A stretch of DNA of 64,000 nucleotides from an uncultured Pseudomonadota bacterium (GCA_902793435.1 CADBDF010000001.1:2418-66417), one strand, 5' to 3'. Numbered from the stretch's first letter, positions 1,511 to 63,495 are shown. Notes: generated by a model from the letters alone, not told the origin. A program made the numbers and translations.

Positions 1511-2464
1511 TTATGAATTTTCTAAAATTTCTTTTAATTCCATCATATCGGCGGGCAATGGCGCCTTGAAAGTCATTTGTTTATGGTTTATAGGGTGTTT
1601 AAACGACAAATATGATGCATGCAACATTTGACCGTTGTGCGTCTTTAAAAATTCCAGCAACTCTGGATTTTTAACACTGCCCAATCTGGTTGTACCACGA
1701 CCATAGATTGGGTCGCACAAAACTGGAAAACCATGCGCCGATAAATGAACCCTGATTTGATGAGTGCGCCCGGTTAGCAAATTACATTTAAACTGTGAAA
1801 TACCAACCGTCCCCCACGCATCAACCACCAAAACCTCGGTCGTGGCAGGTTTGCCCCCGGATTTCACCATTGTCATTTTTTGTCTGTTGCGTGACGAACG
1901 CGCAATATTACCAGTTATCGTTGCACTTTCCCAACTTGGCACACCCCAAACAAACGCGTCATATTTACGCGTTAAATCGTGGGTTGAAAACATCTTGACC
2001 AATTCACGATATGCGGCATCTGTTTTTGCAAACACCATAACCCCAGATGTATCTTTGTCCAAACGATGAACAACCCCAGGTCGAACATCGCCACCAATTG
2101 ATGCCAACGATGTATAACACAACAAATTTTGAACCAATGTCCCAGTTTTGTTTCCAGCCGATGGATACATCACAACACCGCGCGGTTTATTTATCACAAT
2201 AATATCATCGTCTTGGTATAAAATATCCAGGTCAAAATCACATGAAATATTATCAGCCGCCACAGTTGCCCGCGGTGCATCAGGAACAATCACAATATAC
2301 AATTCACCAACGCGGACTTTGTCAGAAAACTTTACAGATGTTCCGCCACGTGATACAGAAAACTTTTGAATTTCACTACGCGAAAATTCAGGCATTTTGG
2401 ATGCTAAAAATTTATCAAGCCGTATGCCAACACTATCGTCATCAACAATAAATTCACGTTGCAT
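1511..2464 (-). CDS. rluD: 23S rRNA pseudouridine synthase, RluA/RluD family
   Basis: N-terminal S4-like region followed by the catalytic HRLDKDTSGVMVFAKTD motif; 317 aa. Confidence 0.8.
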   Translation of the reverse strand: MQREFIVDDDSVGIRLDKFLASKMPEFSRSEIQKFSVSRGGTSVKFSDKVRVGELYIVIVPDAPRATVAADNISCDFDLDILYQDDDIIVINKPRGVVMYPSAGNKTGTLVQNLLCYTSLASIGGDVRPGVVHRLDKDTSGVMVFAKTDAAYRELVKMFSTHDLTRKYDAFVWGVPSWESATITGNIARSSRNRQKMTMVKSGGKPATTEVLVVDAWGTVGISQFKCNLLTGRTHQIRVHLSAHGFPVLCDPIYGRGTTRLGSVKNPELLEFLKTHNGQMLHASYLSFKHPINHKQMTFKAPLPADMMELKEILENS

Positions 2465-2473
2465 TTTTAACCT

Positions 2474-2950
2474 TTATTTATACTTTGACCAATCGGGTCC
2501 CTTGTCACATTTTGACAAATCAATTTCCAATTCATAATCGCCCGATACATCACATGTTAAAATTCCGGTTGTTTCCGCCTGTTCTGCGTCCGCCCCGGCA
2601 TTGCGCCACGCAAATTTAATTTCACGCGGTGGATATATGCACACCAGGCGCAATTTATTTTCAGTTTTGCCAAATGAATCCAACCAAACACGAACGGAAT
2701 CAGCCTCGCCATAGCATGGAAAAGAATCCAAGTAATACAAAATCAAACCATTTTTTAACAACGATTTATCTGTTCCAACAAATTTACCCGTATATTGCGC
2801 CAACGGCAACCCTGTTATACCTGACCAATCCACAGTCGTTGAAAAAATACTGACACGCGGACCAATTGGTGCCGGTTGTGGTGGTGTGGTGGTATCTGCA
2901 AACGCAGGCACATAAAACAAACACGCAAGAAATGCAATTATTTTCTTCAT
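2474..2950 (-). CDS. Secreted hypothetical protein (signal peptide MKKIIAFLACLFYVPAFA), last gene of the prepilin-like operon
   Basis: Cleavable-looking signal peptide. A 4 bp overlap with the upstream zinc-ribbon gene implies translational coupling. Confidence 0.45.
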   Translation of the reverse strand: MKKIIAFLACLFYVPAFADTTTPPQPAPIGPRVSIFSTTVDWSGITGLPLAQYTGKFVGTDKSLLKNGLILYYLDSFPCYGEADSVRVWLDSFGKTENKLRLVCIYPPREIKFAWRNAGADAEQAETTGILTCDVSGDYELEIDLSKCDKGPDWSKYK

Positions 2951-3459
2951 TTTTCAAACTCCCCCAATTTTACAGAAATCTTTTTTACACCCGCCGATGG
3001 CGCACGCAAAGTATAAACAAATGCCGCACGCGCCCCAGATTCCAAAATTGGAACAGATGGGGTAAATTGTTCGCCAGAACCAATCTGCTTTCCATTTTCG
3101 TCGTACGATAAAACAATTATGTTTGGTGGGCTGTAAAATTCATCACTGCGATTTTCAATTATGCCCGATACAATGAAATGATTTATACCATTTCCGTCAG
3201 GTGCCAATTCTGTTTTGACGATTGATGCCGCCAATGGCGATTTTGATTCCATGTGCGAACGATATGTCGATACCGCAACAATCGAAAATATCACCGCAGA
3301 TATCAATGCGCATAATGCCGCCAAAAATAATAACAATGGATTTTTTCTGGCCCGGGTTTTAATCATCCATGAATGACCACAAATTGCACATTTAACCGGC
3401 ACCGCAGGTATTTTGGGTATCGTATATTCTGTTTTACAAAAATCACATTTTATTTTCAT
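2947..3459 (-). CDS. Zinc-ribbon (MJ0042-type CxxC...CxxC) single-pass membrane protein with a periplasmic domain; DUF3426-like architecture
   Basis: N-terminal CDFC...CAICG zinc ribbon, then a hydrophobic helix LLLFLAALCALISAVIFSIVAV, then a domain of about 100 aa. Confidence 0.5.
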   Translation of the reverse strand: MKIKCDFCKTEYTIPKIPAVPVKCAICGHSWMIKTRARKNPLLLFLAALCALISAVIFSIVAVSTYRSHMESKSPLAASIVKTELAPDGNGINHFIVSGIIENRSDEFYSPPNIIVLSYDENGKQIGSGEQFTPSVPILESGARAAFVYTLRAPSAGVKKISVKLGEFEK

Positions 3460-3481
3460 AACATACCTTTTATAGCATAAA

Positions 3482-4798
3482 TTATTGTAATTTCAACAAA
3501 CGATATTTTGCACGCACATCCGCAGCAATTTTATTCAACGCATTTTGATAATCAGCAACCGTCGCATTTGCATTGGCAGCAATAGATTTAAATGTTCGAC
3601 CGGCATTTGTTGTCGTATCAAATTCGGCACGCGGTAAATAACCAATCATTCTGTTCAAATCACCCAAAAACAAATCGTTAAAATTTGCAGATGAACTGCT
3701 GGCGTCCCAATAATAATTTGGATTTTGTGGGTCACTGATTTTTGATAAAACAGTTAATTTCGGGGTAATCGAACCCGCATAACCAACCGTCACATGCATT
3801 GCAGTAATACTGCCATAGCGCATTTTTACAGAACCATTTACAGTTAAAATTACAGGTTTGCCGTTTGCGTTATCTATGGTTAATGCCGGCAAAGTCAAAT
3901 TCGTCACCAGCAAATCGTTCGTTGTAAAAGATGAAAATTTACCCGTATCGGTCAAAGACAAACGACCAGATATTTCTAAATTTCGCGAATCCGATGTCAA
4001 AGAACCTGATACAGTCGCACTCTTGGTTGTAAATAAACTGTCAATCGTTGTGCGATTATCAAAAATCATATTGCGTGATGTTATTTTTCCAATGGTTAAA
4101 AATTCATCAAAAGAACCATCAATAAAACTCATATCTTTGACACCAATAATATCATGACCGCCCAAGTTTAATGACGAACGCATTGTCGCATCGTCTGGGT
4201 CATTTGATGGAACGCGCCACAGGTATAACGCATTATCACGATTTACCGTTGTTGTTCCAACCAACCCAGATGCCGCCGTCACACCCAAATCTGCAACAGA
4301 TGCACGCCAAGAATCATTTGCACCGTATGCTTTATTGCCATCAATAAAGCCAACCGCACCCCCAGACATATTTACAATTTGATGGGTTCGAAAAGGTGTA
4401 ATTTTATCCGATTCATAAACAACGATTCCTTGCAAAGTGGCCTGGCCATTAAAATCACGCGATTTTAAAACACGCAATTGATATTTAACATTTTTATCTG
4501 CGGCAATTTCTGTATCCAACCCATATTTTTCCAAATCAGCCAATTCAACACGTGTAATATTACGACCATAAGGCTTTAACATAGTTTCACGATTATCAAT
4601 AATATAACGTTCCAATGCGTTTTGTATTTCTGTCATCTGTTTTGTGACGACAATATTTTCACGACGTTCAATCGCCGAACGTTGATATTTAAACACAAAC
4701 GGAATTATCAACATAGCCAGCGCAACCGACAATAACAATTCCACCAGCATATTGCCGCTTTGATTCGTATTAAAAAATTTTATATTGTTTCGTTTCAT
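3482..4798 (-). CDS. Giant prepilin-like (pseudopilin-like) protein, 438 aa
   Basis: Class III signal: ...QSG|NMLVELLLSVALAMLII, with Gly at -1, Glu at +5 and a hydrophobic helix. Long S/T/N/G-rich C-terminal region. Shares a 4 bp overlap with the upstream gene. Confidence 0.55.
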   Translation of the reverse strand: MKRNNIKFFNTNQSGNMLVELLLSVALAMLIIPFVFKYQRSAIERRENIVVTKQMTEIQNALERYIIDNRETMLKPYGRNITRVELADLEKYGLDTEIAADKNVKYQLRVLKSRDFNGQATLQGIVVYESDKITPFRTHQIVNMSGGAVGFIDGNKAYGANDSWRASVADLGVTAASGLVGTTTVNRDNALYLWRVPSNDPDDATMRSSLNLGGHDIIGVKDMSFIDGSFDEFLTIGKITSRNMIFDNRTTIDSLFTTKSATVSGSLTSDSRNLEISGRLSLTDTGKFSSFTTNDLLVTNLTLPALTIDNANGKPVILTVNGSVKMRYGSITAMHVTVGYAGSITPKLTVLSKISDPQNPNYYWDASSSSANFNDLFLGDLNRMIGYLPRAEFDTTTNAGRTFKSIAANANATVADYQNALNKIAADVRAKYRLLKLQ

Positions 4799-6069
4799 TG
4801 TTCAGGCACACTTTCTTTGGTTTGCCAATCAGATGCCATAATCGCACTGAATTCATCTTTGTTTGGTGTTTGTGATATTGTTGTTCGTCCCAATTTAAAG
4901 GTCGAAAAACTGGGCATTTGATTTGACGGGAAAGACCAATTACCAATCTTTAATGGTGCGGACCCAGACATTAACAATTCACCAGACACCGTTAATCCAA
5001 AATCACCATAAAACACCATGTCATTTGCACTGATATATGGTGTATGAACAGAATTCGATGATATCGCAGTAAAAGCATTGATTGTTCGATTACTGGACGA
5101 TTTTAATTTAAACAAGTTTCCAATACGCACAGAATTTTTAATTGTTGCCCTGTCGGTAATAACCGCGCCAGTATTACTAAAATTATTTCCGTTCAGGTTA
5201 TTTGCAGTTATTGTGCGAAAACCACTGATATCGCCCAACGCACGTATCGTATCAATAACCGCATCGTTGCCTTGGATATTTGCACCAGACGAAAAATACG
5301 CAGAATCCGCGATAACATCATCAGCACGAATAAATGTTGTTTCTATATTTTTAACAGACACCGTTTCGGCATTTAATGTTCCAACATTTAACAAATCTTT
5401 GCCACCCATATTTAAATTGCGCAACATCGCATTTAAATTAAATTCTGCGGCATCTTTGGCAATTTCTTCTTCTGTTTTTTTGATTGTTATTTTTTTAGGC
5501 TTTGTTTCAACAATCGAATCCGATGCCGCACGATGCAAAAAATTCGTTCTGTCCATTGTCGCGAAATTATGCGATATACGATATATTAAATTACCAGGTT
5601 TAAAATCAGGACCCGATACCGCCCAACCTGTGCCATAGGCAACACCATCATCATCAACAATCGCGGCGGTGGCCCCAATTTGACGCGCAATTTGATTTAC
5701 CCGAACACGCGAATCGGTTATGTCAAATCCAAGATAAATATCTGTTATTGTTGTGCCACGAAATTGACGCTTGTCGATAAAACCACTGGATATAATTGGC
5801 GATATTTCTTGTAAATCTGTGGCGGTCATTTGTATTTCTGCAACATCAGGCCAATCTTCTTGGTGGGTACGAACAAAATTTAATGTTGCGTCTTGCAAAT
5901 CAACAATCTGTTGTGCCACAGAAATATTTTCCAAATCATCGTATGTGTTTGTCATTTGACGATACATAAACGGTGCCGCAACCGCAGCAATTGATATCGC
6001 CAATATCACCTCTAACAACGAGGCACCACGCGAATTATCGTTAAAGATTTTTGTTTTATATACAGTCAC
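4795..6069 (-). CDS. Giant prepilin-like protein, 424 aa
   Basis: Class III signal ...SRG|ASLLEVILAISIAAVAAPF with Glu at +5. The region after the helix is paralogous to its neighbours (ENI.V..Q...LQ pattern). Confidence 0.55.
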   Translation of the reverse strand: MTVYKTKIFNDNSRGASLLEVILAISIAAVAAPFMYRQMTNTYDDLENISVAQQIVDLQDATLNFVRTHQEDWPDVAEIQMTATDLQEISPIISSGFIDKRQFRGTTITDIYLGFDITDSRVRVNQIARQIGATAAIVDDDGVAYGTGWAVSGPDFKPGNLIYRISHNFATMDRTNFLHRAASDSIVETKPKKITIKKTEEEIAKDAAEFNLNAMLRNLNMGGKDLLNVGTLNAETVSVKNIETTFIRADDVIADSAYFSSGANIQGNDAVIDTIRALGDISGFRTITANNLNGNNFSNTGAVITDRATIKNSVRIGNLFKLKSSSNRTINAFTAISSNSVHTPYISANDMVFYGDFGLTVSGELLMSGSAPLKIGNWSFPSNQMPSFSTFKLGRTTISQTPNKDEFSAIMASDWQTKESVPEQ

Positions 6070-7417
6070 TGCGCCCCGCCATTAAACATTGTTTTGCATT
6101 TATTCTTTGTTCCAAACGTTCCCAGAACAAATATTCACACAGTATATGTTGTGCCAAAGAATTTGAATTATATACTTCGCCTAGACTTGCGACGATTGAA
6201 TTACATGTCACAGTTTCTGCATCATCTTTTTTTGGATTTTTCAAAATCGCAAAACCACCGTTATCAACATAAGACACACGAACATCGGGTAATACGGTTG
6301 TGCTGGCTGGACGAATATCTACAATAACCGCACCACTGTCGCCGGCATTTAACGCCTTGGACGTTTGGTCACGCAAAGTGACATGCGATGCAATCAGGGA
6401 ACCGGTTGAAATACCACTGGTTGAATTATACGATAAATGTCCAGAATCACCCGACACATAAACTTCTTGACCACTGCTGACATTTAAATAAGAACCGACA
6501 TCCAATGTTTCAGCACTCAACACGATATGTTCTGTTTCCAAATTACCGCGCACGTCCCATGTGACAGGCCCAGTAAATCCGGTACGCCCCGCCGTTAAAT
6601 CAAATGAATACACCGATGCAGAATCTGATTCAAAATTTCCCGTCGAACCGTATTGAGAAATTGTTTTTCCAAACACATTTTTTGCCCGCAAAGAACCACG
6701 TGTTAATGCCAATGCCGACCCACCAGATTTTGATTGGAATATACTTTTGTCTGCAACAAAATTTTTTATTTTATTTTTTGAATTCCTTTCGCCTTCATTC
6801 CCAGCAATATCCAATGTATCAAAATTTGCCACCCCAGATTCCAAATTATGCCCAATCACACTATTTGTATTTTCTATCGCAAAACCATTCATGTTCAAAT
6901 CTGTTAAAAATCCAGAATTATTTATGTCGGTTTCATTACGACGAACAACATCTTGGTATAATGTATTCAAAGGAATACCTACAATCAATCCGTCTTTACT
7001 TTTTTGTGCATAAAATCCAACACGACGAACCATTTCGGCAATTTGCATATTTGAAATTTTACCACCCGATACAACCAATGTTCCACCAACGCTTGCCTCG
7101 TCTTTATCAACAATCAAATAAATATCTTGCCCGAACGCAGTACGCGGAACATACCCCAAAGGCAAACCGTATGGTTCCAATGTATCTGCAAAATCCGGAC
7201 CACGAATAATTGTTCGACCATATGGCAAACTATCAACATTTTCACGAATAAAAATTCGTGCCGCAGTTTGTGCGGTATCAATTTGATGCGATGCAGAATA
7301 CATTTTTGCATCAACATCATTTACAATTAAACGATTTGTTAAAACCGGCATAAAAAGAAACAGCAAAGATATTGCCAGCAACGCCTGTAATAAAAAATTT
7401 CCCCTCTGGTTATGCAA
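6056..7417 (-). CDS. Giant prepilin-like protein lacking Glu+5 (GspK/PilX-like minor pseudopilin feature), 453 aa
   Basis: N-terminus ...QRG|NFLLQALLAISLLFLF has Gln instead of Glu at +5. It is the first gene of the operon; an AT-rich promoter region lies upstream. Confidence 0.55.
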   Translation of the reverse strand: MHNQRGNFLLQALLAISLLFLFMPVLTNRLIVNDVDAKMYSASHQIDTAQTAARIFIRENVDSLPYGRTIIRGPDFADTLEPYGLPLGYVPRTAFGQDIYLIVDKDEASVGGTLVVSGGKISNMQIAEMVRRVGFYAQKSKDGLIVGIPLNTLYQDVVRRNETDINNSGFLTDLNMNGFAIENTNSVIGHNLESGVANFDTLDIAGNEGERNSKNKIKNFVADKSIFQSKSGGSALALTRGSLRAKNVFGKTISQYGSTGNFESDSASVYSFDLTAGRTGFTGPVTWDVRGNLETEHIVLSAETLDVGSYLNVSSGQEVYVSGDSGHLSYNSTSGISTGSLIASHVTLRDQTSKALNAGDSGAVIVDIRPASTTVLPDVRVSYVDNGGFAILKNPKKDDAETVTCNSIVASLGEVYNSNSLAQHILCEYLFWERLEQRINAKQCLMAGRSDCI

Positions 7418-11482: not shown

Positions 11483-11580
11483 ATTCCGGCCAATTCCACC
11501 CCATAGCCAAACCAGACAAAAGGCGCAATTGTGTCCGCCACCCGAAGGGTGGTCATTGCTCGCTCGGGATGACAAAAATG
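11468..11580. repeat. GC-rich intergenic repeat element (AATTCCACCCC terminus; CCACCC-GAA-GGGTGG hairpin; ...GCTCGGGATGACAAAA module)
   Basis: Shares the AATTCCACCCCATAG terminus with the element at 13141. Shares the GCGCTCRGGATGACAAAA module with the region at about 1395..1495. Confidence 0.45.
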
Positions 11581-11633
11581 TATTGCATTTTTGTTAATGA
11601 TATTTATTTGATTTTATTGTGTTTTTATTGATT

Positions 11634-11838
11634 AAACCGGTCTAAAAAAAACCTAGGTTTAAAAGCAACAACTTTTTTCAAAAATTTTAAAATTCACTTT
11701 TTTGTAAAAACAATGCGTTATTCAAAATCGCAATTCGCCAGATGTGGTGTCGAAAAAAACCTAGGTTTTTTGTATATTTGTTATATAGCGAAAAAGCGCG
11801 GATTTCCGCCAGTTTATAAAGTCGAGAGAGTTGCAAAA
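11634..11838 (+). promoter_or_regulatory. Conserved leader/promoter of paralog A with two AAACCTAGGTTT palindromes (11649..11660, 11757..11768)
   Basis: Near-identical, in inverted orientation, to 24483..24735 upstream of paralog B. It is AT-rich and contains perfect 12-bp palindromes about 108 bp apart. Confidence 0.55.
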
Positions 11839-13152
11839 ATGTCTGCAAAATGTGCATTTTTTAGTGTTTTTCAAAAAATAATGGTATTTTGCTGTGCCAT
11901 ATTTTTTGGATTTGCCGACGCATTTTCCGCAAATTTGCCAAGTGGGTATACGGAATTGGAATATATCGAATCCAGTGGAACACAATATATTGATACGGGA
12001 ATAAACGCCACTGGTAACCTTGATATTCAAGCCACTGTGAAAATATTATCCATGGATTCTTCTATTTCTGGTTTGTTTGGTGCCAGGAATATAAGTAACA
12101 ATTCAACTCTTGATGCGGTTTGGTTAGGGGTTTCAACATCAAGAACTTTGTGGCTATACAATAACAATACTACTAATAACCATTTGCCTGTTTGGGACAC
12201 CAATAAATGGTATGATGTGCATACGATTAATGGTGATTTATATTTAGATGCTTCGAAAATTGCTACATACGAAACCGCGACATTTTCTGGACCGTTAATA
12301 TATTTATTCTCGAGCAATAATGGTGGTTCGATACAGAAGGGGGGTGGGAATTTTCAGTTTTCTAGTTTTAAGATAAAACAAAACAATACTCTTGTTCAAG
12401 ATTTAATTCCCGCGAAACGCGATAGTGACGGTGAAATCGGTATGTACGATACGGTCAGCAACACATTCTTTACCAACGCCGGTACTGGTACATTTACCGC
12501 CGGTCCGGAGGTGTTGAATCCATGCCGGAATTTGTTTGATTCATCAGCATTTAATACAGATGTTGGACAAACTAATACTTGGTTACATTTTCAAGTACCA
12601 AACGGCACATACACAATGAGTACTAATTTTCCTCCTCAAACAGGACAAGTATATACAAATGTTTGGGTTTTGGCAGGAAATGTAACATCTGGAATTGATA
12701 GTGCAACAAATGGTGTTTCTCTTGGCCACCCAAAAACAATAACTGTCACAGACGGCTGGTATTCAGTGGTGTACAGAAGTGGCATACCTAATATTCCGAG
12801 AAATCCAAAAGATTATAACTGGCAACTTGAACAAGGTTCAACAGCAACCGAGTATGTGCCGTATAATGCCAGTTGCCACAATACAAATGGAATCAAAATC
12901 GCAACCACTGCATATAACAGCGCGCGTTTTAGTCCTGTTATGACTGATTTAAATACTACTATTGCTACAATTCGCGATATCGTGACGAATACGATAAATC
13001 AAACCGCCGCAATAGCCAGTTTGCAAGCGGACAAGCAGACCCGCCCGGAAGATGCTTGTCCCGCCGGCAAAAAATGCCTACTGGTCGAAACCGAAGAAAA
13101 CGGCGTTATTGTCCCGCATTGGTTCCCGATAATAGAGGCACCCGAAGAATAA
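11839..13152 (+). CDS. Secreted phage-receptor-binding-protein-like protein, paralog A (alternative start 11881)
   Basis: Begins with a conserved leader ORF MSAKCAFFSVFQKI, then a copy-specific signal peptide MVFCCAIFFGFADAFSA. Central motifs YTELEYIESSGTQYIDTG and NWQLEQGSTATEYVPY. The C-terminal 90 aa (IATTAYN...CPAGKKCLLVETEENGVIVPHWFPIIEAPEE) is about 85% identical to paralog B. Confidence 0.6.
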   Translation: MSAKCAFFSVFQKIMVFCCAIFFGFADAFSANLPSGYTELEYIESSGTQYIDTGINATGNLDIQATVKILSMDSSISGLFGARNISNNSTLDAVWLGVSTSRTLWLYNNNTTNNHLPVWDTNKWYDVHTINGDLYLDASKIATYETATFSGPLIYLFSSNNGGSIQKGGGNFQFSSFKIKQNNTLVQDLIPAKRDSDGEIGMYDTVSNTFFTNAGTGTFTAGPEVLNPCRNLFDSSAFNTDVGQTNTWLHFQVPNGTYTMSTNFPPQTGQVYTNVWVLAGNVTSGIDSATNGVSLGHPKTITVTDGWYSVVYRSGIPNIPRNPKDYNWQLEQGSTATEYVPYNASCHNTNGIKIATTAYNSARFSPVMTDLNTTIATIRDIVTNTINQTAAIASLQADKQTRPEDACPAGKKCLLVETEENGVIVPHWFPIIEAPEE

Positions 13153-13205
13153 TTCCACCCCATAGGGGCGGGGGACCGCCCGTCACCAAAGGTGGCGGGT
13201 GGTGG
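13141..13205. repeat. GC-rich repeat element abutting the paralog A stop codon (AATTCCACCCC...GGTGGCGGGGG)
   Basis: Same termini as the element at 22919..23030 at the homologous position after paralog B. The internal modules differ. Confidence 0.5.
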
Positions 13206-13207
13206 CG

Positions 13208-13240
13208 GGGGTAAAAAAAACGCCCGGTTGGGCGTTTTTT
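13208..13240. terminator. Bidirectional rho-independent terminator (aaaaaaaacgcccggttgggcgtttttt)
   Basis: GC hairpin flanked by an A-run and a T-run, between convergent paralog A and rpsO. Confidence 0.6.
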
Positions 13241-18581: not shown

Positions 18582-18641
18582 GACAAATTCCTTTATATGC
18601 AGGATTCAAAATACACAATAAAAACCGAACTTTCAACAAGT

Positions 18642-19058
18642 TTAATTAAATTTTTTATCAAAAAATTTGCAGATAATATCTTTGAAATCTTGGTGCATGT
18701 CTAAATGTTCGGTGTCTTGACGATTTACCCATTTATAATCGGTGTGTTCAGGCGATAAAACAACATCACCTGAAACATATTTTGCGACGAACAAATACCC
18801 AAAAAATTGAGTGTCTTTGTTGTATGCAATACCCGTCCAACCAAATACGGGGTGGGGCATTGCATCTATGTTTAGTTTAACTTCTTCGTAAATTTCGCGT
18901 GTAATAGCCGTTTGAAAATTTTCACCAAATTCAATTTTTCCACCGGGTAAATCCCACATGCCCGGGAACACAGGTGTTTCTTTGTTTCGTTTTAACACCA
19001 AAATATTTCCCTGTGCATTATATATAATTATTTTTACGACACCCCGAAAATTTGCCAT
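18642..19058 (-). CDS. NUDIX hydrolase
   Basis: Nudix box GGKIEFGENFQTAITREIYEEVKL. Confidence 0.7.
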   Translation of the reverse strand: MANFRGVVKIIIYNAQGNILVLKRNKETPVFPGMWDLPGGKIEFGENFQTAITREIYEEVKLNIDAMPHPVFGWTGIAYNKDTQFFGYLFVAKYVSGDVVLSPEHTDYKWVNRQDTEHLDMHQDFKDIICKFFDKKFN

Positions 19059-22887: not shown

Positions 22888-22919
22888 AAAAACACCGGCA
22901 TTTGCCGGTGTTTTTTTTT
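22888..22919. terminator. Terminator hairpin aaaaacaccggcatttgccggtgttttttttt (canonical ACCGGCATTTGCCGGT family member)
   Basis: Perfect 7-bp stem with a TTT loop and flanking A and T runs. Serves convergent accC and paralog B. Confidence 0.65.
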
Positions 22920-23030
22920 ACCCCCGCCACCCGCTTTCGCTTCGCTTCAGCGAGGTTCCCCGCCCCAAGCGTCACCCACAAAATTTTACAAATTTTGCGG
23001 GGCCCGATTGGGGTGGAATTATTATTCGGG
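22919..23030. repeat. GC-rich mosaic repeat element, full-length type (CCCCCGCCACCCGCTTTCGCTTCGCTTCAGCGAGG...AT-rich module...GGGGTGGAATT)
   Basis: About 90% identical to 33638..33752 and to the shorter 63428..63495. Abuts the stop codon of paralog B. Confidence 0.6.
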
Positions 23031-24362
23031 TGCCTCTATAATTGGATACCAGTGCGGGACAATAACACCGTTTTCCTCGGTTTCGACCAATAAACATTTT
23101 TTGCCGGCGGGGCATTGTTCGTCCGGGCGGGTCTGCTTGTCCGCTTGCAAACTGGCTATCGCGGCGGTTTGATTTATCGTTTTTGTGACTATTTCGCGAA
23201 TTGTTGCAATCGTAGTATTTAAATCAGTCACCACTGGATTAAATTGCGCAGTATTATATGCCGTTGTCGCGATTTTGATACCCAATTCCAGGCTATTCGA
23301 CACAAGTGTTTGACCGTTTTGCAACAAAGTACGAATCGTTGTGGCAATCGTTCCATTATTCTGTATAACCGGCGCGGTGGTCATGGTCTGTCCCGCAACA
23401 GATTCCGTTGTCGGTTCTGCAAGTGGGTATATTACGATTACAGGTGTTCCCGCTGCATACTGGTCGGCAATATATCTTTTCCAATCGGTAACTGTTGGAA
23501 AATCAGTTACAATATTATAGAAGTTTAAATCTGCACTGCCATCTATTTCGATTTTAGACGACACAGATTCTGTTATATTGCTTAATGGCACAGTTTTTGC
23601 TCTTGCAATACTTCTAAGGACCATAGTCGTATACCCACTCCTCCAAGGACTCCAATTCTCCTTTCCATTAAACACCATGACACCGACTTTGCGGGTAATG
23701 ACGCCAGTGTTGATATTTTGTTCATCGGCATAGTCACCAACCGCAAACAAAGTTTCCACATTCGCGGAATGATTCGCACTGTCGCGCACAGTCTCCCCCG
23801 CCCCTTCGGTGTAAATTGAACCGTATGGATGATACGTCGTTGCGGTTGAACCTTTTTCAAACTGTGCATTTGCATAAGTTGTACTCGCATTACCGCCATC
23901 ACGTCCTGTGATTCTAATAAATGCGACACCAGACGGAATATTTATCTGATATGCACTTGATGCTTGTGCCAAGACAGATGATACAAAATTTTTATTATTA
24001 TCATAAAAACAATGATATGCTGGAACACCTAGTGAACTCGTAAAACCAGATAAATAATATGTTGTATTTTGCTGAACAGGTATATAGTCAGAATATCCCC
24101 ATACGATAGACCCTGTTTTTGTTCCGTCTTGAGCCAAATAATCGCCATGTGTCCAAGTGCTTACTTTAAACAAATTCTTACTCAGTTTTATCGCCCCATT
24201 ATTGGTCACGATATTGACGGGATTGCTGGGGGTTGGGGTGCCGGATTGCTCGGTTGCACCAACGACGGTGACACTGGATATCGATTCGCCATCGGCGTAT
24301 ACAGGGGATGCGGTAATTAGCACCGTTAACGCAAGCAGTAAAGATGATAAAAACTTTTTCAT
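23022..24362 (-). CDS. Secreted phage-receptor-binding-protein-like protein, paralog B (start at MKKFLSSLLLALTVLITASPVYA)
   Basis: Own signal peptide and an unrelated central region containing AQFEKGSTATTYHPY. The C-terminal IATTAYN...CPAGKKCLLVETEENGVIVPHWYPIIEAPE is conserved with paralog A. The ORF-track extension to 24488 reads through a repeat element and is unlikely to be translated. Confidence 0.6.
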   Translation of the reverse strand: MKKFLSSLLLALTVLITASPVYADGESISSVTVVGATEQSGTPTPSNPVNIVTNNGAIKLSKNLFKVSTWTHGDYLAQDGTKTGSIVWGYSDYIPVQQNTTYYLSGFTSSLGVPAYHCFYDNNKNFVSSVLAQASSAYQINIPSGVAFIRITGRDGGNASTTYANAQFEKGSTATTYHPYGSIYTEGAGETVRDSANHSANVETLFAVGDYADEQNINTGVITRKVGVMVFNGKENWSPWRSGYTTMVLRSIARAKTVPLSNITESVSSKIEIDGSADLNFYNIVTDFPTVTDWKRYIADQYAAGTPVIVIYPLAEPTTESVAGQTMTTAPVIQNNGTIATTIRTLLQNGQTLVSNSLELGIKIATTAYNTAQFNPVVTDLNTTIATIREIVTKTINQTAAIASLQADKQTRPDEQCPAGKKCLLVETEENGVIVPHWYPIIEAPE

Positions 24363-24482
24363 ACTCCCCCGTTTTCTTTTCCTTTGCCTATAACCCCCTC
24401 CGTCACTCTCGTTGCGTTGCAACTTGGTGACCCGCCTCCCCGGTCGCGCTTGCGCGCTGGGGCGGAATTCTGGACGCACAAA
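24363..24482. repeat. GC-rich repeat element inserted between the conserved leader and the paralog B start codon (…GGGGCGGAATTCTGG terminus)
   Basis: Shares CCCCCTCC and GGGGCGGAATT modules with the other elements. Absent from the homologous position in copy A. Truncates the conserved MSAK leader ORF (24359..24601). Confidence 0.5.
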
Positions 24483-24735
24483 AACCACCAGATTTTTTGT
24501 AAAACACCAAAAAATGCACGTTTTGCAGACATTTTCGCAACTCTCTCGATTTTATAAACTGGCGGAAATCCGCACCTTTTTGCCATGTTTTGATTATACA
24601 AAAAACCTAGGTTTTTTTCGACACCACATCTGGCAAATTGCGATTTTGAATAACGTATTGTTTTTACAAAAAAAGTGAATTTTAAAATTTTTGAAAAAAG
24701 TTGTTGCTTTTAAACCTAGGTTTTTTTTAGACCGG
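24483..24735 (-). promoter_or_regulatory. Conserved leader/promoter of paralog B (inverted copy of 11634..11880), with AAACCTAGGTTT palindromes at 24603..24614 and 24712..24723
   Basis: Reverse complement matches copy A almost base-for-base, including the leader ORF start MSAK(R)AFFGVLQKI. Confidence 0.55.
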
Positions 24736-24770
24736 TTTAATAAATAAAAACAGGCTATATTTAATTGGTT

Positions 24771-27347: not shown

Positions 27348-29621
27348 ATGGTTGAAAAATTCAAGATTTTATCTGTTGGCGGTTCGTCCAAAGGATTAAA
27401 CATTTTTAAATCGTCGGCTTATAAAGAGCACGAGGCGGGGCAATTCGCCCAAATGTTTTGGATATTCCGCTGGAACGCTATGATTTGGTGCATTTGCGCA
27501 CTGATGTTTGGGTTTGCATTTATTATCGAACATATTTTCAGGTATGGGTGGTCGCCCGCATCGTTGCATTGGTCTGGTATTTTTTTGGGACATGCATTGC
27601 ATTCTTTTGGGCTGTCTGTGGTTGCAGAGGTTCCTAATTGGATTATGCGTGCAATATTTAACCCTGATTTCGAATGTATTGTGCCAATTATACCTATTAT
27701 CGCTTTCTATTTTATGGCAGATGATACATTGACCAAGGAATTTAACCCACATGGCAAAGATATGTACGACGAAAAATCTTCGCGCAAGGCAAATGCAAAT
27801 GATATTAAAAAAATGGGAAAATTTGCATGGAAAACAAAAATGGGTTTGTTCCAAGGCTTTATGATGGTTTTGGGATATTTCAAAGACGGAAAAACATCTA
27901 AACCTTTGATGATGGACGAAACATTGTCTGTGTTGTGTGTGGCGCCTCCGGGAACCGGTAAAACCGCCGGGGTTGTGATTCCTACGATTGTTGAATGTGA
28001 TAATGTTTCCATGATTATCAATGACCCAAAGCCTGAATTGAAACAATTAACATCCGCATATCGCGCGACCATTGGTCCGGTGTTCATTATGAATTGGGCG
28101 GGACAAGACGATCCAGAACGCGGAATATTTTATCCATCTTGGAATCCGTTATCCCCAGAACATGTCCCAACCGAAGTCGAACAACGCGATTTGTATGTTG
28201 ATACAATATGCAAAGTGTTGGTACCTGATGCAACCGGGTCAAGTGCAGACCCGCACTGGTCAATATCTGGACGCGCAGGATTATCTGGATTTATTCAATA
28301 TATTGTTTCAAAAATAGAACGCGCCAAAGCCGATGATTATTTTTATGCACGTTTGCAATCTGGCGAATTTAACCAAGAAGACGCAAATGTTTTGATGGAT
28401 TATTATTTATCTATGTCGTCTAATCAAAACGCGTATGCGGCATTGGGATTATTACAACGCGGTGAATTAAATACGATGAATTATGTGCATGTTGGGTCTT
28501 GGCGACATATCCCAGATGCTTGGTTGGGTAAAGAGGCATCTTTGTCCATGATTTTGGATTGGTTAAACGCATCACAATTGGCAAACGCCGCACAAATGGA
28601 AGAACGGCGCAAACAAGGCGACCAAATGGTTGCGTTGGCTGACCCAATGAAAGACGTTTTAGAAGATGCTGTAAATGAGGCTGTAGAGTTTGCATATTCG
28701 CATCGTGCGGTATTGGAATTGACGCAACTGGCAAATACACCTGATAAAGAACGCGGGTCTATTTTATCAACAATTATGGCAGGATTAGGCATTTTCCGTA
28801 ATGCCGCAGTGCGCAACAGAACATCACATTCCGATTTCCATTTCGAAGATTTAAGAGGATTAAAAGACCCACGTGATGGCAAAATTAAACCTGTATCGGT
28901 GTATCTATCTATTAACATGGTCGATGCCCAGGCTTTGAACCCAATTACTGGAATTTTCATTGAATTGATGTCTAATTATCTGTTGGTAAATACCCCAGAT
29001 GTTATTAGCACGTCTGGTAAAAGATTGGGGCCATACCCGGTATTGTTCGTGTTGGACGAAATGCCAAAAATGCAAAAATTAGATGCGGTTATCCAAGGAC
29101 CTGATTTGGGACGTGGGCAACAAATTTCTTATCTGATTATTGGCCAGGATTTACACCAAATCCAAGAAAAATATGGCGCGGACGCAGCGGCAACTATTAT
29201 TTCAACAACCGCGGCAAAAATCATTATGCGTCAAAATGACCCGGATACCGCAAAACGCTTTTCCGACATGATTGGAAAAGAAATCAAAAAAGAAAAAAAG
29301 AAAGACAAAGACGGAAAAGAAACCATTGAAACCAAGGCACCAAAAGATTTATACTCGCCAATGGATATTATGACCCTGCCCGAAGGCAAGCAGATTGTTT
29401 TGTTCCAAGGTTGGTATCATAGACCGATTGAGGCCGACCAAGAAAGACATTTTTTGGAAAAGAACGATATTCAAAAGAAACTGCACGCCAAAGTGGCAAT
29501 GGGCGAATCTGCACCTATGCCTGAATTCTTGGTACCGGCACACTATCGTGCGATGGGGTATAGTGGCCCAATTAAATTCTTGGACCCAACCACAAAGACA
29601 ATTAAAGTTTTGGCTGAATAA
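27348..29621 (+). CDS. Type IV secretion coupling protein (VirD4/TraG family), orphan
   Basis: N-terminal TM helices, Walker A VLCVAPPGTGKTAGVVIPT and Walker B/arginine-finger region VLFVLDEMPKM...GRGQQISYLIIGQD. A Lys-rich C-terminal extension is present. No relaxase or VirB genes are in the window. Confidence 0.65.
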   Translation: MVEKFKILSVGGSSKGLNIFKSSAYKEHEAGQFAQMFWIFRWNAMIWCICALMFGFAFIIEHIFRYGWSPASLHWSGIFLGHALHSFGLSVVAEVPNWIMRAIFNPDFECIVPIIPIIAFYFMADDTLTKEFNPHGKDMYDEKSSRKANANDIKKMGKFAWKTKMGLFQGFMMVLGYFKDGKTSKPLMMDETLSVLCVAPPGTGKTAGVVIPTIVECDNVSMIINDPKPELKQLTSAYRATIGPVFIMNWAGQDDPERGIFYPSWNPLSPEHVPTEVEQRDLYVDTICKVLVPDATGSSADPHWSISGRAGLSGFIQYIVSKIERAKADDYFYARLQSGEFNQEDANVLMDYYLSMSSNQNAYAALGLLQRGELNTMNYVHVGSWRHIPDAWLGKEASLSMILDWLNASQLANAAQMEERRKQGDQMVALADPMKDVLEDAVNEAVEFAYSHRAVLELTQLANTPDKERGSILSTIMAGLGIFRNAAVRNRTSHSDFHFEDLRGLKDPRDGKIKPVSVYLSINMVDAQALNPITGIFIELMSNYLLVNTPDVISTSGKRLGPYPVLFVLDEMPKMQKLDAVIQGPDLGRGQQISYLIIGQDLHQIQEKYGADAAATIISTTAAKIIMRQNDPDTAKRFSDMIGKEIKKEKKKDKDGKETIETKAPKDLYSPMDIMTLPEGKQIVLFQGWYHRPIEADQERHFLEKNDIQKKLHAKVAMGESAPMPEFLVPAHYRAMGYSGPIKFLDPTTKTIKVLAE

Positions 29622-33592: not shown

Positions 33593-33637
33593 TCAAACGG
33601 GCAATGCCCGTTTTTTTTAAGTATGGTGCTTTTTGTA

Positions 33638-33752
33638 ACACCCCCTCCACCCGCTTTCGCTTCGCTGCAGCGAGGTCCCCCTCCCCAATGCTTACCCAAA
33701 AAATTTTTACAAATTTTTCGAGGCCCAGCGGGGCGGAATTTATTTGCAAATG
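33638..33752. repeat. GC-rich mosaic repeat element, full-length type
   Basis: CCCCCTCCACCCGCTTTCGCTTCGCTGCAGCGAGGTCCCCCTCCCCA...TTTTTACAAATTTTTCGAGGCCCAGCGGGGCGGAATT; homolog of 22919..23030. Confidence 0.6.
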
Positions 33753-33902
33753 GGAATTTTTGATTTTATAATACGACGGTTGCGGGGGGCAATTGTTCAT
33801 TTTTGCACTTTTATTGTTTTTTATTTTTAGCACGAGTGTAAAAACGAATAATTTTCTCCGCAAAATAAACTTTAATTTAACAATAAAAAATGGAGAAAAC
33901 TG

Positions 33903-36835: not shown

Positions 36836-36905
36836 TTGCGCTACGCTACAGCGAGACAGGTCCGTTTATGCCCTGGTGGGATACAGCGAGATTACAGGGT
36901 TCAAT
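36836..36905. repeat. GC-rich repeat variant (GCGCTACGCTACAGCGAG module)
   Basis: Related to the GCTTCGCTTCAGCGAGG core of the main repeat family. Confidence 0.35.
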
Positions 36906-63378: not shown

Positions 63379-63427
63379 TTTAACAAAAGCCCATTCGGGC
63401 TTTTGTTACACAATTATTGTGCTTTTT

Positions 63428-63495
63428 GTAAAACCCCCTCCACCCGCTTTCGCTTCGCTTCAGCGAGGTCCCCCTCCCCACGGGGGCGGAATTAA
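63428..63495. repeat. GC-rich mosaic repeat element, short (internal-deletion) type
   Basis: CCCCCTCCACCCGCTTTCGCTTCGCTTCAGCGAGGTCCCCCTCCCCACGGGGGCGGAATT. Same termini as 22919 and 33638 but lacking the AT-rich middle module. Confidence 0.6.

Follow-up and report, generated by a model that had tools for sequence, protein, structure and literature searches.

Intergenic GC-rich repeats of an uncultured rumen bacterium raise the question of what kind of element they are and how they spread. The window (the whole stretch of DNA analysed here, 64,000 nt) holds several of them, and a sequence-only reading had described them as a family of mosaic, MITE-like elements in an AT-rich genome. The AT-richness is moderately true, as the GC content of the window is 39.7%, and the elements stand out from it with 56-70%. 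They form an undescribed small family of GC-rich, hairpin-forming intergenic repeats whose host is an uncultured rumen alphaproteobacterium. With modest confidence, the family is classified here as a lineage-restricted mosaic repeat similar to REP/BIME, NIME or RIME elements and not as a cut-and-paste MITE.

The window is chromosomal, with accB, accC, pnp, truB, mutS, cysS, mreB, rpsO, dnaX, lptD and parAB among its genes. Rumen metagenome scaffolds of the series STEW19-1 and SHIW14-1 encode proteins identical to ones of the window, and MAGs labelled 'Alphaproteobacteria bacterium' carry homologues of one local hypothetical protein. The closest genome among the species representatives is the rumen MAG RUG14746, an 'uncultured proteobacterium'. 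A VirD4/TraG-like type IV coupling protein is encoded amid housekeeping genes (27348-29621, +); downstream of it lie a gene for a 419-aa protein, with a sub-threshold TPR-type match only, and then one for an LpoB-like lipoprotein. ARAGORN reports a 91-nt tRNA-Asp with the anticodon ATC (18624-18714, +), which has no Rfam match and overlaps a NUDIX ORF (18642-19058, -); this call is probably a false positive. The L-numbered labels used below (L001-L050) denote loci of 1-15 kb from relatives, metagenomes and MAGs.

Architecture of the repeat unit

The comparison covered at least 25 different units, drawn from at least 17 sites. Each unit is non-coding, modular and palindromic, has a length of 47-126 nt and follows one scaffold, 5'-ACCCCCKCC, H1, TCCCCCKCCCC-loop-GGGGYGG (which forms H2), AATT-3'. 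The stem-loop H1 is in most cases closed by ACC...GGT. At least seven H1 module types, unrelated in sequence, occur on this one scaffold among 25 distinct units; they include H1a (the 'core' of the sequence-only reading), ACCGTCTTCGACGGT, GTCAC...GTGAC and ACCAC...GTGGT. In H1c, the stem ACCAC/GTGGT has a relative with ACCGC/GCGGT, which is a compensatory change.

H2 arises from pairing of the second C-tract with the G-rich right end. The loop of H2 has 2-3 nt in the short forms, and in the long forms it contains an inserted hairpin, which is an AT-rich cassette, the CGCGCTTGCGCG hairpin or another hairpin (L009). In L039 the AT-rich cassette is also found within an H1 stem, and one hairpin is thus nested in another. 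The left end, ACCCCCKCC, repeats the middle C-tract in direct orientation, and the right end, GGGGYGGAATT, is complementary to that same tract. The imperfect inverted termini claimed previously are therefore a misreading.

Units occur singly, in tandem or head to head, and most are single and in one orientation; head-to-head pairs are present in L045 and L039 only. The tandem array of L039 has a junction in which ...GGCGGAATT is directly followed by ACCCCCTCC... (also written as ...GGGGCGGAATT followed by ACCCCCTCC...), and this junction defines the boundaries of the unit.

Two hairpins are predicted in every version of the unit. The long forms fold better than shuffled sequences (z=-3.7, -2.9 and -2.4), as seen in the DNA folds of W1 (z=-3.66) and E24 (z=-2.36). 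The short forms do not outperform shuffles of matched composition (z=-0.5 to -1.9), since a C/G-rich sequence folds well in any shuffled order. Pairing in H2 was also evaluated in an alignment assembled by hand from 12 H2 hairpins of four subfamilies. In this alignment 91.7% of the cells are paired and three pairs are changed on both sides. The H2 register exceeds 500 of 500 shuffles on two of five measures, namely the percentage of paired cells and the covariation score, and it is also better than all slid registers. A T.C mismatch is retained in H2 of the commonest subfamily. The G.U pairs of the H1a stem exist on the C-rich strand only.

Copies in the window

The exact 30-mer CCACCCGCTTTCGCTTCGCTKCAGCGAGGT has three matches in the window, all on the plus strand, compared with 0.00 expected from 100 dinucleotide-preserving shuffles. 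This confirms the three main copies (W1, W2 and W3 in Table 1) and the consensus that had been proposed for them. The copy at 63.4 kb had been said to lack an AT-rich module of about 45 bp; the missing module is 43 nt long and is present in the other two copies. Two of the three stretches put forward as related, module-shuffled elements (13141-13205 and 24363-24482) do have the same ends with other modules. The third (36836-36905, +) is rejected as a member of the family, as it has no scaffold motif, a profile E-value of 0.29, no structure (z=+0.29) and only weak similarity to the H1a hairpin. Its site, at the 3' end of ybaB, carries a genuine long unit in strain L039.

Table 1. Repeat units of the window and the features next to them.
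Feature	Coordinates	Strand	Description	Parts	Position
W1	22920-23020	+	long form, G-subfamily	leader ACCCCCGCC 22920-22928; H1a 22929-22956; C-tract TCCCCGCCCC 22957-22966; nested AT-rich hairpin cassette 22967-23009; GGGGTGGAATT 23010-23020	between bidirectional terminator 22888-22915 and stop codon of gene 23022-24362 (-)
W2	33640-33740	+	long form, T-subfamily	leader 33640-33648; H1a 33649-33676; C-tract 33677-33686; AT-rich cassette 33687-33729; GGGGCGGAATT 33730-33740	right end 3 nt upstream of promoter-like -35 (TTGCAA, 33744) of pnp
AT-rich left arm of W2	33621-33639	+	GTATGGTGCTTTTTGTAAC, common to the T-subfamily (W2, W3, L034, L011, L007b, L039)		
W3	63433-63493	+	short form, T-subfamily	left arm 63414-63432; leader 63433-63441; H1a 63442-63469; C-tract 63470-63479; loop ACG; GGGGCGGAATT 63483-63493	between terminator of SIMPL gene (63386-63405) and tRNA-Val promoter
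E13	13151-13212	-	short form, G-subfamily	H1 module 'g'	between stop codon of gene 11839-13152 (+) and bidirectional terminator 13215-13240
E24	24393-24469	+		H1 module 'e' (GTCAC...GTGAC); CGCGCTTGCGCG hairpin in H2 loop	30 nt upstream of start codon (24362) of gene 23022-24362 (-); at breakpoint of homology with paralogous locus
E11	11492-11573	-	partial/degenerate, without C-tract leader	right end CTATGGGGTGGAATT and three small hairpins	between a terminator and upstream region of gene 11839-13152 (+)
Secreted hypothetical protein gene	23022-24362	-	446 aa		conserved 86-aa C-terminus directly followed by W1
Paralogue of the 446-aa gene	11839-13152	+	437 aa		E13 directly 3'

The six units are clustered in about 76 kb of the source genome, which comprises the window, 9.4 kb past its end and 2.4 kb before its start; no further unit is found in these two extensions. 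All copies of the window are intergenic and none lies in frame inside a coding sequence. The placement at gene 3' ends beside terminators, which had been described for all the elements of the sequence-only reading, is only partly true, as E24 and the additional copy E11 depart from it.

The neighbourhood of the units has further sequence features. The promoter-like site of pnp is TTGCAA-17-TATAAT (33740-33772); in strain L023, which has no unit here, both hexamers are present and the spacer has diverged. The terminator hairpin ACCGGCATTTGCCGGT, flanked by A/T runs, is a second repeat family with eight sites in the window (11459, 19087, 22894, 39310, 39379, 40936, 41309 and 41392). It gives 11 strand-matches at two or fewer mismatches, compared with 0.07 expected, and is reminiscent of uptake-sequence pairs.

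Distribution outside the window

A search with the 23-mer core gives five matches on four contigs of RUG14746 and single matches in six unrelated MAGs. A 20-mer search of metagenomes gives 19 loci, of which 12 are family members, and a profile search of the collected DNA adds a few more divergent units. One metagenome contig (L027) ends within the repeat, as would be expected of a multi-copy sequence.

Two pattern scans of viral contigs return no match, so a phage or viral origin was rejected. A known RNA family was also rejected from the Rfam results. At gathering thresholds only tRNAs pass in the window, and in E-value mode the best matches reach at most 27 bits against thresholds of at least 39 and are driven by a neighbouring terminator. 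A full-text literature search returns no match to the core, and its 11-mer matches are unrelated primers. The view that this is a dispersed, mosaic intergenic family unlike any named one is thus upheld within Rfam and the literature searched.

The exact H1a 23-mer GCTTTCGCTTCGCTNCAGCGAGG also occurs in unrelated lineages: Parcubacteria, Acidobacteriaceae, Rhodospirillales, Gammaproteobacteria, Candidatus Enterousia and another proteobacterial MAG (loci L002, L003, L005, L006, L008, L010 and L040). Here it mostly lies in other flanks, cccGCTTTCGC...GCGAGGcaagcc (ccc...caagcc), and the gammaproteobacterial copy (L003) directly adjoins a tRNA-Gly gene at the gene's 5' end. The chance expectation for the 23-mer is about 0.07 matches at equal base frequencies. 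Since the 23-mer is of low complexity, (CGCTT)n-like, its presence in these lineages could reflect convergence, horizontal spread or a shared target.

A more distant organism (L045) has two tandem paralogous surface-protein genes (2256-4771), and behind each of them lie divergent units with this architecture. Pairing is perfect in the H2 stems of these units (CCCCTCC/GGAGGGG and CTCCCCC/GGGGGAG), and one pair of the units is head to head. In L030, an ORF for a stand-alone GIY-YIG nuclease domain (5171-5488, 105 aa) lies about 230 nt from a unit.

Variation between strains

The strains compared have flanking genes that are about 97% identical in DNA and identical in protein. At the site upstream of pnp, L023 has no unit, the window has one and L039 has two in tandem, the first of these with a different H1. 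At the SIMPL/tRNA-Val site, L028 and L029 have no unit, the window has one and L043 has one with a different H2 centre. Three alleles, which differ in the H1 module and in the number of units, are seen at the E24 site (window, L038 and L044). At the E13 site, L042 has a W1-type unit with H1a and the AT-rich cassette, and the unit of the window lacks the cassette and has another H1; this exchange is bounded exactly by the conserved C-tracts. Presence/absence polymorphism, proposed as a check on the family, is therefore found at two sites (zero, one or two units at pnp; zero or one at SIMPL/tRNA-Val). Together with the copies outside the window, it contradicts the possibility, raised in the sequence-only reading, of elements restricted to the window and without insertion polymorphism.

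The 'empty' alleles of both sites are not products of precise excision. The whole intergenic stretch is replaced by unrelated sequence; one empty allele has also lost the neighbouring terminator and the 19-nt AT-rich left arm, and in L023 the left arm (33621-33639) is replaced along with the element. No clean empty site was seen at the two presence/absence sites. The search for target-site duplications suggested earlier was negative, as neither a duplication nor a common target is present in about 17 distinct flank pairs. The left flanks are merely A/T-rich and often consist of the T-run of a terminator.

Module swapping and the gain and loss of units at fixed sites suggest recombination rather than transposition. 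From the comparison of alleles we infer a mechanism in which recombination, gene conversion or template switching, with the C-tracts of 8-10 nt as anchors, most likely keeps the copies alike and reshuffles them. Units would most likely be gained and lost with the surrounding intergenic DNA, through allelic replacement after DNA exchange between strains. Recombination alone leaves the arrival of units at unrelated intergenic sites unexplained. Colonisation of a new site, often at the A/T run of a terminator, would need an extra step, for which illegitimate recombination and an enzyme that recognises hairpins in trans are the candidates. An effect on the host, if any, would be secondary and could come, for example, from stable 3' UTR hairpins or from homology patches beside variable surface-protein genes. 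The reading as a lineage-restricted mosaic repeat takes as observed the multi-copy dispersal, the two-hairpin architecture with compensatory changes, the differences in units and modules at fixed sites and the co-duplication with a gene family.

Transposition by an enzyme acting in trans

The main rival explanation is an enzyme that recognises hairpins in trans. In a system of the REPIN/RAYT or IS200/IS605 type, a single-copy HUH tyrosine transposase would recognise hairpins of single-stranded DNA and copy units without target duplication. A REPIN is defined as two inverted REPs mobilised by a RAYT (PMC3337134). The present units are compatible with such a system in that they are hairpins with conserved structure and variable sequence, have neither target-site duplications nor terminal inverted repeats (TIRs), include some head-to-head pairs (L045, L039) and lie beside terminator hairpins and A/T runs. 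However, most units are single and do not form inverted doublets, and a by-eye reading of the unit ends finds no GTAG-type 5' motif, the signature of REP elements. A tblastn search of 422 kb with approximate IS200/RAYT queries, which has low sensitivity, gives no such ORF, and a Pfam scan of 38 flanking and window proteins gives no transposase. The clean empty sites that would fit this mode of movement are also not seen. Mobilisation by such an enzyme is therefore considered rather unlikely.

Association with secreted-protein genes

Two of the units of the window, W1 and E13, follow the inverted paralogues that encode secreted hypothetical proteins (Table 1). The two paralogues share 88% identity over their last 86 residues and have unrelated N-terminal parts. 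The C-terminus is 79-93% identical to that of proteins with unrelated N-termini. Neither paralogue has a match in Pfam, PHROG or NCBIfam. The family is a mosaic one with at least 788 matches, in gut and rumen Alphaproteobacteria. In the collected DNA, a unit lies directly after the conserved C-terminus in eight of 12 cases. The long W1 subtype is found only directly behind this C-terminus, which suggests that it has spread by co-duplication with the end of the gene. The gene family is present without units in a distant MAG (L050).

The two paralogues, their upstream regions and their downstream units are part of an inverted duplication (11620-13212 and 22920-24752) with arms that are 83-96% identical. 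It brackets about 10 kb with rpsO, truB, mutS, cysS, NUDIX, mreB, rnpA-like, accB and accC genes, a segment that could invert by homologous recombination. Elsewhere in the window, the protein encoded at 3482-4798 (-), among clustered ORFs (2474-7351) that lack Pfam matches, has a weak, above-threshold match to Shufflon_N (29 bits, cutoff 27.5). Shufflon_N is the constant region of PilV-type minor pilins.

The proximity to these genes raises the possibility that the units are cassette-exchange recombination sites, similar to NIME/dRS3 or attC, at which a recombinase or Chi-, G4- or i-motif-like tracts would promote the exchange of secreted-protein genes. Units abutting the conserved 3' end in eight of the 12 cases would agree with this, as would the homology arms of the inverted duplication, which terminate at units. 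At the paralogue-2 type locus (window, L044 and L007), the variable gene body is bracketed by units on both sides. Many other flanking ORFs encode large proteins without a Pfam match, and NIME arrays beside surface-antigen genes have been proposed to act in this way (PMC1797815). Bracketing on two sides is not general, however, as it is absent at L004, L042 and L038. Half of the sites are next to housekeeping genes (pnp, tRNA-Val, accC, rpsO, fba and PBP), L050 has the gene family without the units, and no recombinase was found nearby. Overall, such a role is unlikely.

A stronger version, in which the scaffold is a dedicated recombination signal that drives the exchange of the variable bodies of the secreted-protein family, as an antigenic or surface-variation cassette system, is a long shot. 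The signal could be a folded single strand as in attC, Chi-like G-rich octamers, or a G-quadruplex or i-motif on the strand-asymmetric C/G runs. If this were true, the 10-kb segment between the inverted paralogues could invert, and the cross-phylum H1a 23-mer would reflect a shared protein target.

Orientation and transcription

The orientation of the units relative to flanking transcription and terminators is mixed. W1 and E13 are transcribed in the sense of the G-strand as part of 3' UTRs, between the stop codons of the two inverted paralogues and the bidirectional terminators. W2 and W3 come after terminators, in the sense of the C-strand, ahead of the promoters of pnp and tRNA-Val. L001 and L009 have C-strand-sense copies in a 3' UTR, and both units of L030 come after terminators in the opposite orientation. 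A rule that the C-strand always follows a terminator was considered; it fits W1, W2, W3, E13, L042, L044 and L047 and was rejected on account of L030 (both units), L009 and L001, in which the other end abuts a terminator or a stop codon.

This mixture makes a strand-specific RNA role unlikely. The units would in that case act as an sRNA or as a module of UTRs, and would control translation, the stability of mRNA or termination through their single-stranded C-tracts (CCUCC, anti-Shine-Dalgarno-like) or their hairpins. Such a role would fit the conserved hairpins with compensatory changes, the copies between stop codon and terminator (E13, W1, L001 and L009) and the restriction of the H1a G.U pairs to one strand, and C-rich anti-Shine-Dalgarno seeds are known from sRNAs. 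Against it, either orientation may be transcribed depending on the site, or the unit may lie behind a terminator without a promoter-like site. No Rfam match comes near threshold, and module swaps and alleles with zero, one or two units beside housekeeping genes have no visible consequence. A function as an RNA element is accordingly judged improbable.

A leader peptide was also considered for E24, as a 57-codon ORF (24532-24362, -) runs through it, starting at the ancestral signal-peptide ATG (24532) and ending in an ATGA overlap with the downstream start codon. The candidate was rejected, since the frame is closed in the L044 allele and is probably a coincidence.

The classical Correia-like MITE, a deletion derivative of a DDE transposon with TIRs that inserts by cut-and-paste with target-site duplication, matches the small size, dispersal, intergenic position and presence/absence polymorphism of the units, but its other hallmarks are missing, with ends that are not mutual inverted repeats, about 17 flank pairs without duplication or common target and empty alleles that are imprecise, so this reading is largely refuted and very improbable.

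Comparison with known repeat systems

The reading as a lineage-restricted mosaic repeat places the units beside several described systems. The neisserial NIMEs are the closest functional analogue. In Neisseria, the 20-bp dRS3 inverted repeats flank more than 100 families of RS elements (PMC1797815). The units resemble them in that a short, conserved, GC-rich inverted repeat (here H2, CCKCCCC-N3-GGGGYGG) alternates with many exchangeable modules, and in that recombination has been proposed as the driver. Functionally only, they are also alike in having syntenic arrays that vary in unit number, length and module content near variable surface-protein genes. The units are outside the NIME family, because dRS3 (ATTCCCNNNNNNNNGGGAAT; ATTCCCN8GGGAAT) has no match in the window at one or fewer mismatches. 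They also differ from NIMEs in that the host is an alphaproteobacterium, H2 is asymmetric and of another sequence, and units are mostly single or double rather than in long arrays. The variable modules are themselves hairpins that can be nested on a C-tract scaffold.

The REP, BIME and REPIN elements of Enterobacteria and Pseudomonas, with their RAYT transposases, are a second such system (PMC3337134, PMC3116915). Like them, the units are short, GC-rich palindromes that lie outside genes, at gene ends and near terminators, with mosaic motifs as in BIMEs and no target-site duplication. REP elements are possible stabilisers of 3' UTRs. The units differ from REPs and REPINs in being unrelated in sequence, in having no regular inverted doublet and in their asymmetric scaffold, which is C-rich on one strand. 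RIMEs of Rhizobium are, by description, also intergenic mosaic palindromes of an alphaproteobacterium with conserved sequence and secondary structure. They differ from the present family in host lineage and base composition, and the comparison is one of description and claims no sequence identity.

Correia elements and other MITEs, the RPE of Rickettsia and the GC clusters of yeast mitochondria are all small GC-rich palindromic repeats in an AT-richer genome, as is the present family, and the nested insertion pattern of the mitochondrial GC clusters resembles that of the units. The units are unrelated in sequence to all of these. They have neither the TIRs nor the target-site duplications of Correia elements and MITEs, and unlike RPE they are not found in frame in coding sequences. 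They also differ from attC sites, as their ends are ACCCCC.../...GGAATT and not the core sites RYYYAAC/GTTRRRY; no integrase is encoded among the window and flanking proteins scanned.

Significance

The family is an ordinary kind of repeat and does not overturn current understanding. It is, however, novel in sequence and well delimited, and it comes from an uncultured, host-associated alphaproteobacterial lineage. In practical terms, the repeats break metagenome assemblies, as in L027, and could serve as strain markers. The grammar of the family is unusually clear, with one scaffold and exchangeable hairpin cassettes, and natural alleles with zero, one or two units and with swapped modules are available in strains that are about 97% identical. 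These properties make it a tractable case for understanding how REP-, NIME- and RIME-like repeats arise, move and are reshuffled. The family also bears on the question of whether such repeats promote variation in adjacent surface-protein genes.
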